Virus genome (UHGV): UHGV-1793583
Length of the DNA: 21,101 nucleotides
Direction: 5' to 3' (one strand)
From: a virus
Below, in pieces: positions 1,758-20,541 of the stretch. Within the stretch, counting starts at the first letter, position 1. Every line of letters begins with the position of its first letter. A program made the translations under genes and the position numbers. The notes under the pieces were generated by a model. The model made no database searches. It saw only the letters and a program-made list of their open reading frames with translations, and was not told the DNA's origin.

Positions 1758-1821
1758 TGGGTGTTTCTTTCACGTAAGAAATATAAAACGTGATCTACCT
1801 CGCAAAGTATACGAAATGGCA

Positions 1822-1850
1822 TTGTTTCGGCAGTGCCATTTTGTTATATA
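1822..1850 (+). promoter_or_regulatory. sigma70-like promoter TTGTTT-N17-TATATA, embedded in inverted repeat AAATGGCA/TGCCATTT
   Basis: -35 at 1822-1827, 17-bp spacer, -10 at 1845-1850 with TG at 1842-1843; lies in the 110-bp gap before gene 1869. Confidence 0.5.
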
Positions 1851-1868
1851 TAAGCCACCGAAAGACGG

Positions 1869-2180
1869 ATGGGCAAAATCATGAAAAGCAATAAATTCAT
1901 AGCGTGCTGTTTTGTTGAAGTACCTGAAGGTGATGTCTTCTGCAATTACGAATTTAAAGACAGTTGGGGAAAATCTCATGTTGTAGTTGGCAAGCGCGGG
2001 GACTGGTTATACATAACAGACGATGACATGATTTTTACTGTAAGCCAGTTATTCAAAATTAAGTCAGAAAATAGTGAAGCACCACTTTGCAGAATGTTTA
2101 ACATGCATTATCACTCACTATTATTGTTAAAACAAGATGTTGTAAACAAAGCGCGTAGCTTACCTGGTGCCGAATTTTAA
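1869..2180 (+). CDS. hypothetical protein (103 aa; alternative start ATG 1881)
   Basis: First gene after the 1822-1850 promoter; ORF from track. Confidence 0.5.
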   Translation: MGKIMKSNKFIACCFVEVPEGDVFCNYEFKDSWGKSHVVVGKRGDWLYITDDDMIFTVSQLFKIKSENSEAPLCRMFNMHYHSLLLLKQDVVNKARSLPGAEF

Positions 2181-3433: not shown

Positions 3434-3441
3434 AGCCGTAT

Positions 3442-3470
3442 TTGCAGAGCGTAAACAAACAGATTAAAAT
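3442..3470 (+). promoter_or_regulatory. sigma70-like promoter TTGCAG-N17-TAAAAT upstream of lysis cassette
   Basis: -35 at 3442-3447, exact 17-bp spacer, -10 at 3465-3470. Confidence 0.5.
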
Positions 3471-3498
3471 ATTACCTAACAATGCGAAATTGTAATTA

Positions 3499-3520
3499 CC
3501 CGGCCCCGCGCCGGGTTTTT
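3499..3520 (+). terminator. intrinsic terminator (CCCGGC-loop-GCCGGG + T5)
   Basis: 6-bp GC stem, 5-nt loop, then TTTTT; about 30 nt downstream of the promoter -10 and 20 nt before the holin RBS. Confidence 0.65.
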
Positions 3521-13548: not shown

Positions 13549-13566
13549 GTATGTGGAGCAAACAAA

Positions 13567-17218: not shown

Positions 17219-17247
17219 CTTATACAAAATGTATTCGTTGAAGTGAA
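17219..17247 (-). promoter_or_regulatory. sigma70-like promoter for moron 1 (-35 TTCACT, 17-bp spacer, -10 TATAAG)
   Basis: -35 is reverse complement of 17242-17247, -10 of 17219-17224; -35 overlaps the GTGAAGCCATTTTGTA motif. Confidence 0.4.
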
Positions 17248-17299
17248 GCCATTTTGTATAGAATAGAGATCTAGATCACAATTTTCATGAGGTTAAATC

Positions 17300-19968: not shown

Positions 19969-20223
19969 TCATTTATGTGCCCCTTTTACGCCACAGTGGC
20001 GGTTGTATTCCAGATGGTCAATAATTAACCACATCTTTAGATCTTCGCTGAATAACCGCCAATCGGGGTTGATGTCAAATTTATAACCGTAGCCATCGCG
20101 TAATTTTTTGGGGTTGGCCTCTTTTTTCAGGAAAGCGTTTAATAAGGCCTTGCCCTTTTTGATGATCCGGTCCTGTGCGTTTTTCTGTGCTTTCAGGTTT
20201 TTACCAATCGCCACCAATTTCAT
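19969..20223 (-). CDS. small basic protein of unknown function (84 aa)
   Basis: Reverse-strand ORF; ATG at 20223 preferred (GGGGTGGG RBS); Lys-rich; second gene of two-gene minus cassette. Confidence 0.5.
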   Translation of the reverse strand: MKLVAIGKNLKAQKNAQDRIIKKGKALLNAFLKKEANPKKLRDGYGYKFDINPDWRLFSEDLKMWLIIDHLEYNRHCGVKGAHK

Positions 20224-20241
20224 AACCCACCCCACAATCCA

Positions 20242-20397
20242 TTAGCTGACCACTTTCAGGAAGAAATCACGGTATTCATCTTCTTTTGCATTCATCATGA
20301 ATTGACCGTATTTGAATGCGTCATCGAAGCCTTTTACAATCGCCACTTCCACCTGTTCGAATGCGTTGTTCAGCATTACCACTACATAGCGTTTCAT
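20242..20397 (-). CDS. small acidic protein of unknown function (51 aa, MKRYVVVMLNNAFEQVEVAIVKGFDDAFKYGQFMMNAKEDEYRDFFLKVVS)
   Basis: ATG at 20397 with AGGAGGGG RBS; first gene of minus cassette; 18-nt gap to downstream basic-protein gene. Confidence 0.45.
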   Translation of the reverse strand: MKRYVVVMLNNAFEQVEVAIVKGFDDAFKYGQFMMNAKEDEYRDFFLKVVS

Positions 20398-20439
20398 GAT
20401 GCCCCTCCTTTGTTGGTACTGCTTTCTCTTCTTGCTTCC

Positions 20440-20468
20440 TATATACATCTTGTTACGTCCTGTGTGAA
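20440..20468 (-). promoter_or_regulatory. sigma70-like promoter for moron 2 (-35 TTCACA, 17-bp spacer, -10 TATATA)
   Basis: -35 is reverse complement of 20463-20468, -10 of 20440-20445; -35 overlaps the GTGAAGCCATTTTGTA motif. Confidence 0.45.
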
Positions 20469-20486
20469 GCCATTTTGTAAACTGGG

Positions 20487-20492
20487 TATAAT
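20487..20492 (+). promoter_or_regulatory. consensus -10 hexamer TATAAT without clear -35, possible plus-strand promoter for the gpM-like gene
   Basis: Perfect TATAAT 8 nt after the 16-bp motif; nearest -35 candidate TGTGAA is poor. Confidence 0.3.
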
Positions 20493-20511
20493 TCTTGTGA
20501 CGAAGTTCTAA

Positions 20512-20541
20512 TTTTTCGCGTAGAAGCGCGTAAAGATGTAT
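20512..20541. promoter_or_regulatory. conserved 30-nt leader element TTTTTCGCGTAGAAGCGCGTAAAGATGTAT (copy B)
   Basis: 27 of 30 identical to 8410-8439; 27 nt upstream of the gpM-like start. Confidence 0.45.

Follow-up and report, generated by a model that had tools for sequence, protein, structure and literature searches.

A putative accessory promoter cassette in an mEpimmI-type prophage and the intergenic word that marks promoter regions of the phage family

The inverted repeat and promoter-like hexamers at positions 1814-1850 of the window (the whole stretch of DNA that was analysed, 21,101 nt, an mEpimmI-type E. coli prophage) are best accounted for, with a probability that we put at roughly 0.45, by an accessory sigma-70 promoter cassette of ∼90 bp (1789 to ∼1880; site A), a flipped paralogue of the cassettes found at leftward morons (modules B and C). 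If so, a box, CC(A/G)TTTTGTA(T/A)A, that occurs twice in the cassette in opposite orientations, once upstream of the -35 and once adjoining the -10, accounts for the inverted repeat. The upstream box, ACGAAATGGC at -46 to -37, would be a site for the RNA polymerase alpha C-terminal domain (alpha-CTD) next to CRP, and the end of the spacer, GCCATTTTGT, would supply the TG of an extended -10 ahead of TATATA; transcription would start near 1857 and serve the 99-aa gene at 1881. The left box would also make a mirror-image -10-like element facing left, as in module B. A hairpin with a UUCG loop followed by UUUUGUUAU is most likely an intrinsic terminator or insulator directly before the promoter. 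Whether the boxes are parts of promoters or sites of a regulator, 1814-1850 is an accessory copy of the cassette rather than a point of core control.

Anatomy of site A

The coordinates given by the sequence-only reading for the repeat, the hexamers, the spacer and the shared core all agree with the letters: the arms are AAATGGCA (1814-1821) and TGCCATTT (1834-1841), a spacer of 17 nt separates the -35-like TTGTTT (1822-1827) from the -10-like TATATA (1845-1850), and the right arm with its flank occupies 1835-1844. The features of the site are:

1789-1804, no strand assigned: CRP-like palindrome CGTGATCTACCTCGCA, two mismatches to TGTGA-N6-TCACA; centre at 1796.5, which is -60.5 from the predicted start at 1857
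1806-1811, minus strand: mirror-image -10-like hexamer TATACT, adjoining the left arm and facing left
1811-1821, plus strand: left arm or upstream box, ACGAAATGGCA, at -46 to -36, homologous to the 16-bp moron motif when that is reverse-complemented
1814-1841, plus strand: core hairpin AAAUGGCAUUGU-UUCG-GCAGUGCCAUUU, loop at 1826-1829; the repeat as first described plus the palindromic centre
1822-1827, plus strand: weak -35-like TTGTTT, three of six consensus matches
1834-1844, plus strand: right arm or downstream box, TGCCATTTTGT, at -23 to -13; contains the extended -10 TG (1842-1843) and begins the U-tract after the hairpin
1845-1854, plus strand: A/T-rich -10 region TATATATAAG, the -10 being taken as TATATA 1845-1850
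1857-1880, plus strand: predicted start (∼1857) and short leader, from the position of the -10 and an alignment in which it corresponds to the leader of the moron transcript that runs leftward from module B
1881-2180, plus strand: downstream gene, 99 aa, MKSNKF...; in a near-identical prophage the start is the ATG at 1881, not 1869

Perfect 8-bp inverted repeats with loops of 3-20 nt are not in excess in the window (8, compared with 6.6 in shuffles), and an 8-bp repeat taken alone is at the chance rate. The repeat itself is real, and its arms are longer than had been reported: ACGAAATGGCA pairs with TGCCATTTTGT at 10 of 11 positions, and the 11-bp dyad is perfect in the MFDS1019527 copy.

Both hexamers are weak. 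TTGTTT, which also precedes the box and -10 at the nutR2-proximal promoter, agrees with TTGACA at three of six positions, below the 4/6 criterion for a sigma-70 -35. TATATA, behind a 17-bp spacer, has the A at position 2 and an A rather than T at position 6; the final T is absent too from the overlapping alternatives TATATA (1847-1852) and TATAAG (1849-1854), the latter being the hexamer that module B uses. Promoters that depend on an activator or have an extended -10 typically show a weak -35; the poor hexamer makes a promoter here less likely and is still compatible with one. The extended -10 is present (T1842 and G1843, at -15/-14 relative to TATATA 1845-1850; consensus TRTGn, PMC4132738). 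Sites A, B and C are all missing from the list of a consensus promoter scan.

The leftward hexamer at 1806-1811 is TATACT, TATACA or TAAACC/T across relatives and is the counterpart of the element of module B that faces the tape-measure gene; at site A there is no leftward gene beyond it. The product of 1881-2180 matched no Pfam or PHROG family, and Rfam at the gathering threshold gave no matches in the whole window.

Homology with the moron cassettes

A 16-mer, GTGAAGCCATTTTGTA, is present at 17243-17258 and 20464-20479, in two modules with the following parts:

17219-17280, no strand assigned: module B, between a leftward moron and the tape-measure gene
17219-17224 and 17242-17247, minus strand: predicted leftward promoter of module B, reverse complements of which read TATAAG (-10) and TTCACT (-35)
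17221-17233: left arm of module B
17243-17258: 16-mer of module B
17259-17264: rightward -10-like TAGAAT of module B
17265-17280: CRP-like site of module B
20440-20511, no strand assigned: module C, between a leftward ParE-like toxin-antitoxin pair and a minor tail gene
20440-20445 and 20463-20468, minus strand: predicted leftward promoter of module C, -10 and -35 (TTCACA) read as reverse complements
20464-20479: 16-mer of module C
20478-20483: TAAACT of module C
20487-20492: TATAAT of module C
20496-20511: CRP-like site of module C

Lying antisense to the late operon, the leftward morons of modules B and C must have promoters of their own. The only conserved -35/-10-like elements there are TTCACT-N17-TATAAG (B) and TTCACA-N17-TATATA (C); ACAAAATGGC adjoins the -35 in both, in a geometry identical to that of site A. 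The plus strand of site A (1789-1857) aligns with the minus strand of module B over ∼87 nt (score 45, z 9.6), while z is only 4.0 for the plus strand of B and 1.3-2.4 for module C; the three elements are paralogous over 60-87 nt. The layout that A and B have in common comprises a CRP-like site at -60.5, ACAAAATGG at -46 to -37 (UP-proximal), a weak -35, a 17-bp spacer and, at the downstream end, CATTTTG(T) beside an A/T-rich -10. Since site A is homologous to cassettes that must drive leftward morons, the promoter proposed at 1822-1850 is plausible. The arms of module B are invariant in 46 relatives, and its centre, candidate -35 hexamers included, varies.

The same alignment changes the assignment of the core that site A had been said to share with the 16-bp moron motif. 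The word is indeed non-random; however, because site A is homologous to the minus strand of B, the equivalent of the motif is the left arm (1811-1820), not the right one. This arm adjoins the upstream side of the -35, as the 16-bp motif does in the leftward promoters of B and C.

Conservation among relatives

Relatives were collected by protein-anchored retrieval instead of a 14-mer scan; the 14-mer GAAGCCATTTTGTA gave mostly chance matches in unrelated contigs of IMG/VR. Likewise, none of 45 matches to TATACAAAATG-N12-24-CATTTTGTATA in species-representative genomes resembled an mEpimmI relative: they were phylogenetically scattered, mostly in metagenome-assembled genomes, and the enterobacterial one that was read (Rosenbergiella) lay in an unrelated context.

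All 34 relatives examined have the downstream gene, and only six have the promoter cassette. Absent from mEp021, mEp010 and most relatives, it is therefore an accessory cassette and not a core early promoter. Where present, one 75-bp block stands ahead of two different genes. In 10 cassettes from these two gene contexts the core shows 100% conservation, and the conserved block does not stop at the hairpin but takes in the CRP-like site and the leader.

CRP-like sites and the position of the upstream box

The CRP-like site of the window reads CGTGA-N6-TCGCA (8/10 relative to TGTGA-N6-TCACA) and aligns with that of module B. At this position the cassettes of M1/5 and strain 127 have TGTGA-N6-TCACA without a mismatch, and a poly-C tract interrupts the site in MFDS1019527; the two mismatches in the window and the disruption in one relative weigh against the preferred reading. 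CRP-like sites with at most one mismatch are enriched (9, with 1.6 expected). Counted from the predicted starts, with an uncertainty of 1-2 bp, the sites of A and B are centred at -60.5 and that of C one helical turn further upstream, at -70.5.

Class I CRP promoters (lac-type) have CRP at -61.5, with alpha-CTD between CRP and the -35. Site A resembles them in its palindrome ∼60.5 bp before the predicted start (in module C the distance is 70.5 bp), in an A-tract at -43 to -41 before a weak -35, and in having the extended -10 TG as well. It differs in that the intervening element is a sequence- and lineage-specific word and not just an A-tract, and in that its CRP-like copy has two mismatches, its start is predicted and the role of CRP is putative. 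The UP-element consensus is AAAAAARNR (PMC4132738), with critical adenines at -41 to -43 (PMC4390567). A proximal subsite would have this sequence at about -46 to -38. The corresponding stretch is ACGAAATGGC, from -46 to -37, in A and ACAAAATGGC, from -45 to -36, in B, C and PR; AAA(A) falls on -43 to -41, the UP proximal subsite, and six of the eight specified positions match (five of the six A's and both R's).

Judged by position, the left arm would lie at the UP-proximal/alpha-CTD site beside a CRP-like site, a geometry of activation rather than repression. The repression suggested earlier, through a -35 enclosed by the repeat, finds no specific support, given this geometry and arms that are 24 bp apart, centre to centre, and as such do not fit a single dimeric operator.

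The box word and a possible regulator

In the window CCATTTTGT occurs four times (0.29 expected), a count reached in none of 100 shuffles; one copy (13562, minus strand) is merely the context of a start codon, ...GGAGCAAACAAAATGG. In the full sequence of the near-identical prophage, CATTTTGT/ACAAAATG is the top intergenic 8-mer, with 12 occurrences in 6 kb against 0.3 in shuffles, an enrichment of ∼40-fold. The sequence-only reading had named lack of genome-wide enrichment of the half-site as its own refutation; the enrichment is there. The word is the top intergenic 8-mer of mEp021 as well (15 versus 3.8) and is not enriched in phage lambda (3 versus 2.8).

As a signature of the family, the box can be written CC(A/G)TTTTGTA(T/A)A, 12-13 bp and asymmetric. 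It is confined to intergenic regions genome-wide, the immunity region included, and it marks almost every promoter region of the phage family, with the exception of the candidate late promoter. Instead of the three binding places proposed earlier there are at least 10 boxes per genome, among them those at PL, PR and the promoter upstream of nutR2. The box adjoins the -10 at the PL and nutR2-proximal promoters; at PR (TTGACT-N17-TATATT; strong and invariant) GTATACAAAATG adjoins the -35. Inverted pairs of boxes bracket the -35 at A, B and PL. The centres of paired boxes are 24 bp apart at A, 26 bp at B, where the 13-bp arms of most relatives give 31 bp, 36-38 bp at PL and ∼59 bp near nutR2. About six boxes are co-directional with transcription and about six opposite, with no stoperator-like bias.

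Most copies of the box have G at -13, not -14, and the extended -10 rule thus fails to explain the conservation of CC(A/G)TTTTG. This part is conserved in the spacers of PL and the nutR2 promoter, the distal halves of which vary freely. Also, one word of 14-17 nt appears in either orientation and takes up two different positions within promoters; such a dual-orientation, dual-position, lineage-specific word is more typical of a transcription-factor site than of a core promoter.

These observations lend weight to a different reading, credible if on the improbable side, in which the boxes are sites of a dedicated lineage-specific DNA-binding protein and site A, the moron/tail junctions, PL, PR and the nutR2 promoter make up one regulon. 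Candidate binders would be the CI-like repressor Rep, a MarR-like Cro analogue encoded first in the PL operon, or some other factor of phage or host; boxes adjoining a -10 would repress, and boxes at about -42 would be neutral or activating. A regulator would fit a box that is the most over-represented intergenic word here and is not enriched in lambda. It would fit the invariance of the box at module B in 46 relatives with a variable centre, and at PL and PR in 20 relatives with a variable distal PL spacer. The 17-nt word ATCCATTTTGTATACTT, which PR and the nutR2 promoter share letter for letter in opposite orientations, the A/G wobble at box position 3 that recurs at three different sites, and the inverted pairs around the -35 point the same way. 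The boxes are, moreover, present at the immunity promoters PL and PR, as those of an operator would be.

Their arrangement is another matter. Operator half-sites would lie about one helical turn apart; the paired boxes are 24-59 bp apart and each is asymmetric, a misfit to a lambda-CI-like dimer such as Rep, and separate TTGCA/TGCAAG palindromes in the immunity region look more like the operators of Rep. Nearly all the boxes adjoin an outward-facing TAnAnn hexamer or a -35, as parts of promoters would; shared ancestry of A, B and C (paralogous over 60-87 nt) explains part of their identity; and repression of morons in a lysogen would be unusual. There may be a common trans-acting regulator, as first suggested. 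We find the cassette promoter, with its boxes as promoter parts, the better account.

One could speculate further, on what we regard as an unlikely footing, that the box is the recognition site of an mEpimmI-family factor tying PL, PR and the nutR2 promoter to every moron/tail-gene junction as two-way switches, site A being the same switch reversed, plus a terminator. A bound box would block the rightward promoter because it adjoins its -10, and the same box would stand at about -42 of the leftward moron promoter. Lambda CI activates PRM from about that position. A lysogen would then have morons on and tail genes off, or the reverse would hold in lytic growth.

The hairpin of site A

A feature missed in the sequence-only reading is that the repeat can be read as the stem of a plus-strand hairpin followed by a U-tract after a stop codon, the anatomy of a terminator. 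RNA of the plus strand at 1805-1856 folds into a 19-bp stem capped by UUCG (-21.7 kcal/mol, z -5.5; none of 200 shuffles as stable), ranking about 31st among 10,526 windows of 52 nt. The minus strand folds more weakly (only -9.2 to -11.2 kcal/mol); the continuous stem is strand-specific because it contains G.U pairs. Six additional central pairs are unique to site A, and two of them are G.U, valid in plus-strand RNA only. The core stem (8-10 bp, four G-C pairs, UUCG loop, -10.0 to -12.7 kcal/mol) is comparable in energy with the other terminators of the window; for the core hairpin at 1814-1841 the energies run from -10 to -14.5 kcal/mol. The hairpin lies ∼60 nt past the stop codon at 1757 of the upstream ORF (1506-1757), and after A1838 the U-tract TTTTGTTA has T at six of eight bases; the tail as a whole is UUUUGUUAU. 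Among the cassettes compared, only site A has the palindromic centre between the boxes, and so upstream transcripts reading in could fold into the hairpin. We consider the hairpin with its U-tract a likely intrinsic terminator, a function predicted from this anatomy.

The terminator scan does not list the hairpin, probably on account of the extension of the stem into A/T tracts. In 10 homologues, the sequences of which are very similar, none of 15 consensus pairs is broken and none shows a compensatory change; two of the pairs switch between G.U and A-U or between U-A and U.G.

The repeat might, then, be simply an intrinsic terminator or RNA-stabilising hairpin that ends the upstream cluster, with the hexamers incidental to its A/T-tract flanks. 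The stem with its stability and strand asymmetry, the core energy, the tail and its distance from the stop codon, and the central pairs found in A alone would all suit this; relatives without the cassette carry a different GC hairpin ahead of the same downstream gene. That hairpin, however, has no U-tract, and termination would therefore be no general requirement at this position. Neither the absence of covariation nor the silence of the terminator scan favours the idea, the conserved block continues well beyond the hairpin into the CRP-like site and leader, and the 87-nt homology is to module B, which cannot be a terminator and must hold a promoter. We rate a terminator without a promoter as quite improbable; in the preferred reading the predicted terminator stands before the promoter cassette.

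A chance inverted repeat with a chance shared 9-mer, devoid of function, would be compatible with the ordinary number of 8-bp repeats, the weak hexamers and the lack of the site in most relatives, yet it is effectively refuted by the extended homology to module B, the ∼40-fold intergenic enrichment of the word, a core identical in 10 cassettes of two gene contexts, and the z of -5.5 of the hairpin.

Relation to known systems

Lambdoid morons are said to be autonomous promoter-gene-terminator units inserted in an operon. The promoter cassette described here, like them, travels independently of core genes, and its type drives leftward accessory genes, the ParE-like toxin-antitoxin pair among them, within the tail operon. 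Unlike in a moron, which as a whole unit with a 3′ terminator would be present or absent, the mobile part at site A is the cassette: the gene stays where the cassette is absent (34/34 versus 6/34). The hairpin precedes the promoter, and downstream, at 2528-2624, no terminator came to light.

With intrinsic (Rho-independent, including bidirectional) terminators site A shares an A-tract, a stem, a UUCG loop, a tail with U at six of eight bases and a preceding stop codon; it departs from them in a stem that has two G.U pairs, runs into A/U tracts and overlaps the -35/-10.

Some divergent promoter pairs reportedly have symmetric -10 elements with starts ∼18 bp apart. Like such pairs, A and B have two outward -10-like hexamers, each with the same word, about a common centre; module B has a gene in each direction, and at site A nothing lies downstream on the left. 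Here, instead of sharing -10 elements, the two promoters would have neighbouring -35 positions and starts separated by ∼58-59 bp.

The 'stoperators' of mycobacteriophage L5 are reportedly multi-copy asymmetric sites of the repressor gp71. At least 10 copies of a 12-13-bp asymmetric intergenic word throughout the genome, immunity region included, recall this arrangement; unlike stoperators, the boxes have no orientation bias and often form inverted pairs, and the repressor is lambda-CI-like, not an L5-type monomer.

Phages of the mEpimmI group are reportedly as common as lambdoid phages in human-gut E. coli, and the one genomic paper devoted to them (PMC11893012) speaks of a promoter a single time, without defining any operator. 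Promoters and operators of the family being essentially undescribed before, the present data give a first candidate promoter map for it (PL, PR, the nutR2-proximal and moron promoters, and a candidate late promoter), with one signature word for all these regions except the candidate late one. The element is of an ordinary kind, newly described for this phage family. Should the CRP reading be true, accessory genes of the prophage, the ParE-like toxin-antitoxin pair included, would be tied to the carbon status of the host; should the regulator reading be true, the family would have a genome-wide regulon of unusual layout.

Candidates considered and rejected

Comparison with consensus sequences by eye found no fit to all copies of the box for sites of IHF, Fis, ArcA, CpxR or TyrR or for 434-type ACAA-N6-TTGT sites. 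The box also seems an improbable operator of the lambda-CI-like Rep: no dyad was found within it, and no shared helix-3 residues that would predict a half-site. A sigma-54 promoter was dismissed by eye, as TGGCATTGTTTCGGCA has GG and GC 12 bp apart without the TTGC context, a by-product of the palindrome. Finally, a late promoter for a Q-like antiterminator was rejected for site A, the cassette being absent from mEp021, mEp010 and most relatives; immediately ahead of the holin gene, at 3441-3516, TTTGCA-N18-TAAAAT with a terminator behind it makes a better late-promoter candidate.

Sequence and setting of site A

The window matches the temperate siphophages of the mEpimmI group (mEp010, mEp044, mEp554, mEp021 and others; described in PMC11893012) at 85-92% identity; around site A, a cassette with an inverted repeat and a candidate promoter (1789 to ~1880), identity is 100% with an E. 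coli WCHEC025970 prophage, used as the full-genome reference. Site A occupies a 111-bp gap flanked by small genes of unknown function; in the reference annotation a Q-like antiterminator gene is situated ~2.5 kb upstream and a holin gene ~1.7 kb downstream. The gene after site A (99 aa, ATG 1881 in the reference annotation) had no match in Pfam or PHROG. The ORF list puts its start at ATG 1869 (MGKIMKSN...); ATG 1881 (MKSNKF...) is indicated by the reference annotation and by where conservation begins in relatives.

Direct reading of 1800-1860 gave cgcaaagtatACGAAATGGCAttgtttcggcagTGCCATTTTGTtatatataagcc. The elements considered were as follows.

1814-1821, left arm, AAATGGCA
1822-1827, -35-like hexamer, TTGTTT
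1834-1841, right arm, TGCCATTT
1835-1844, right arm plus flank (core), GCCATTTTGT
1845-1850, -10-like hexamer, TATATA
17243-17258 and 20464-20479, 16-mer, GTGAAGCCATTTTGTA

All coordinates that the sequence-only reading had assigned to arms, hexamers and core proved right; the arms are longer than it described (11 bp, 10/11 matching). Perfect 8-bp inverted repeats alone are unremarkable (8 in the window versus 6.6 in shuffles), and the list from a consensus promoter scan contained neither site A nor the two moron junction sites carrying the 16-mer, B (17219-17280) and C (20440-20511).

A signature word of the lineage

The arms are two inverted copies of a word, CC(A/G)TTTTGTA(T/A)A, called the box below. 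We observed CCATTTTGT 4 times in the window, with 0.29 expected; its minus-strand copy at 13562 is mere ribosome-site/start-codon context. In the reference prophage (11.6% intergenic) the top intergenic 8-mer was ACAAAATG/CATTTTGT, with 12 of 18 copies intergenic, and the words ranked after it were overlapping fragments of the same motif. Thus, the half-site enrichment across the full genome, on which the proposal of a shared motif had been staked beforehand, was indeed present: 12 intergenic copies versus a mean of 0.31 (maximum 4) in 2000 per-segment intergenic shuffles. There were 15 copies in mEp021 (3.8 expected) and 3 in phage lambda (2.8 expected), none of the latter at known promoters; being enriched in the prophage and mEp021 and not in lambda, the word is a lineage signature rather than a general coliphage promoter feature.

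The word had been expected at three sites, one early promoter and both moron promoters; its distribution turned out to be wider. The strongest-looking phage promoter, TTGACT-N17-TATATT, lies between the repressor gene (upstream) and nutR1 (downstream), with GTATACAAAATG adjoining its -35; in 20 relatives box, -35 and -10 are invariant and the spacer is variable. At the leftward promoter upstream of nutL (PL), TTGAYY-N16-TAAACT, CCATTnTG adjoins the -10; the spacer is constant in the half with the box and varies in the distal half, and upstream of the -35 there is another box, in inverted orientation. Two more moron/tail junctions outside the window also carry boxes. A promoter-like TTGTT(T/C)-N16-TATACT with CC(A/G)TTTTG is found ~25 nt upstream of nutR2 boxA (15125-15200 in L004, the prophage locus reaching outside the window; 20130-20200 in mEp021); this third nut site may have its own promoter, beyond PR transcripts alone.

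Relation to the moron junctions

Sites B and C are both in divergent gaps, B between the tape-measure gene and a leftward cassette (small ORF and 138-aa secreted-looking protein), C between the minor tail gene and a leftward ParE-like toxin-antitoxin pair. In the latter cassette, at 19969-20448 (-), between tape-measure and minor tail genes, a small gene for a putative antitoxin comes before the ParE-like toxin (PF24732, E 8e-12).

In local alignment A(+) matched B(-) with score 45 and z 9.6 over ~87 nt, compared with z 4.0 for A(+) and B(+), 1.3-2.4 for A(+) and C, and 8.6 for B(+) and C(+); these z-scores indicate that site A is a turned-round paralogue of the moron-junction cassette. The A/B block begins with a CRP-like palindrome, takes in the two arms and the -10, and reaches into the leader. 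The right arm had been taken for the counterpart of the 16-bp moron motif; given the flipped homology, it is the left arm. In A, B and C alike the box adjoins the -35 of a candidate promoter facing the accessory gene.

Site A, ACGAAATGGC-a-TTGTTT-N17-TATATA
Site B, minus strand, ACAAAATGGC-TTCACT-N17-TATAAG
Site C, minus strand, ACAAAATGGC-TTCACA-N17-TATATA

The leftward moron cassettes need their own promoters because they are antisense to the late operon; at B and C there are no other suitably placed hexamers than TTCACT/TATAAG and TTCACA/TATATA.

At site B, TATACAAAA.G and CATTTTGTATA.AATAG are invariant in 46 relatives, with the intervening 18 bp variable; in most of these relatives TTTATACAAAATG and CATTTTGTATAAA form a perfect inverted repeat of 13 bp around a variable N18 centre (17219-17264 in the window; ~2920-2965 in L133-L177), and -10-like hexamers face outward, toward the moron and toward the tape-measure gene. 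Several unrelated moron types lie left of the box, and the repeat is thus the mark of a mosaic boundary. In the minor tail gene leader, hairpin CGCGTAGAAGCGCG (20517-20530) has nearly invariant CGCG/CGCG arms and a variable loop (17 relatives); most relatives also have an inverted box copy, ATACAAAATGTAA, ~20 nt ahead of the ribosome site, and the window has a degenerate one.

The 75-bp core of the site A cassette is nearly identical among prophages, is followed by two different genes and was present in 6 of 34 relatives with the MKS(N/D)KF gene; we therefore characterized site A as an accessory, exchangeable cassette. In most cassette-less relatives that position is taken by another ORF and a GGGGCCGGATGGCCCC hairpin. 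This GC hairpin (~560-600 in L182-L213; 23530-23560 in mEp021) is conserved, with G.U variants and without a U-tract, and precedes the start codon of the MKS(N/D)KF gene by ~20 nt.

CRP-like sites and candidate promoter elements

All minus positions depend on a start inferred to lie 7 nt past the -10.

CRP-like 16-mer, site A, 1789-1804, centre -60.5
CRP-like 16-mer, site B, 17265-17280, centre -60.5
CRP-like 16-mer, site C, 20496-20511, centre -70.5

Positions -60.5 and -70.5 are class I CRP positions, on one helix face. In two A-cassette variants the site is a perfect TGTGA-N6-TCACA; the prophage has 9 sites with ≤1 mismatch (1.6 expected), several sharing gaps with boxes. Palindromes (T/C)GTGA(T/C)-N4-ATCACA stand beside boxes in nearly all its regulatory gaps (L004 6617, 11496, 15098, 38847 and 40520; window 1789, 17265 and 20496), which suggests genome-wide input from cAMP-CRP or from a phage-encoded protein whose site resembles that of CRP. 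In the E. coli MFDS1019527 prophage (~1480-1500 in L009) a 13-C poly-C tract replaces the right half of the site; it could be slippage-prone, altering promoter spacing or regulation.

With AAA at -43 to -41, the upstream box is similar to the proximal UP subsite AAAAAARNR (PMC4132738), whose critical adenines are at -41 to -43 (PMC4390567). The downstream box ends in TGT, an extended -10 properly positioned in A (consensus in PMC4132738).

A hairpin specific to site A

In A the palindrome is completed by the 12-nt centre between the arms, TTGT-TTCG-GCAG; alignment revealed no such centre in modules B and C. Plus-strand RNA folds into a stem of 15-19 bp capped by a UUCG loop, at -21.7 kcal/mol (z -5.5); the best minus-strand fold has only -11.2 kcal/mol, as four positions are G.U pairs. 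The 8-10-bp core stem (-10 to -12.7 kcal/mol), akin to other predicted terminators of the window, is directly followed by UUUUGUUAU; the hairpin is ~60 nt past the stop codon of ORF 1506-1757. Across 10 cassette copies 15/15 consensus pairs are kept; two vary (G.U to or from A-U, U-A to or from U.G), with no two-sided changes, thus the structure fits the data without covariation proof.

Interpretation

We tentatively consider site A a compound element (probability roughly 0.45): a moron-type promoter cassette, box arms and an insulating terminator-like hairpin. Host RNA polymerase, aided by CRP and alpha-CTD, would read the cassette, whose two boxes would be the two arms; the hairpin would have arisen ahead of the promoter, shielding it from upstream transcription. 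All parts would be of known kinds (class I CRP promoters, UP subsites, extended -10, intrinsic terminators, morons, divergent promoter pairs); for the mEpimmI family, neither the signature box nor where it occurs had been described before.

The main rival, possible but less probable, takes the boxes for sites of a dedicated factor. In its favour, a single 14-17-nt, lineage-specific word serves in both orientations and at two different promoter positions, and the PL spacer keeps its proximal half; however, the box is asymmetric, box pairs vary in spacing, nearly all boxes adjoin a -10-like or -35-like hexamer, and Rep, the repressor, is lambda-CI-like, with other palindromes in the immunity region. 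A genome-wide regulon defined by the box, in which the moron/tail junctions would act as two-way switches, we regard as rather improbable. It is improbable that site A is a terminator and nothing more, as this leaves the homology to B and the conserved flanks unexplained; chance is excluded.

Other regulatory elements

In the immunity region outside the window (L004 6534-6632) repeated TTGCA/TGCAAG palindromes, e.g. CTTGCATCCTTGCAAG, surround the promoters of PL and of the repressor gene; 20 relatives have them without variation. They are the likeliest candidates for operators of the CI-like repressor, which has no published operator.

Immediately ahead of the holin gene come, in this order, TTTGCA-N18-TAAAAT (3441-3470), a small ACAAT/ATTGT repeat and, at 3498-3516, a strong terminator that corresponds to TERM_5 of the mEp021 record. 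The stretch 3441-3516 looks like a late promoter unit of the lambda PR'-tR' type; the Q-like gene is unusually distant, ~4 kb upstream.
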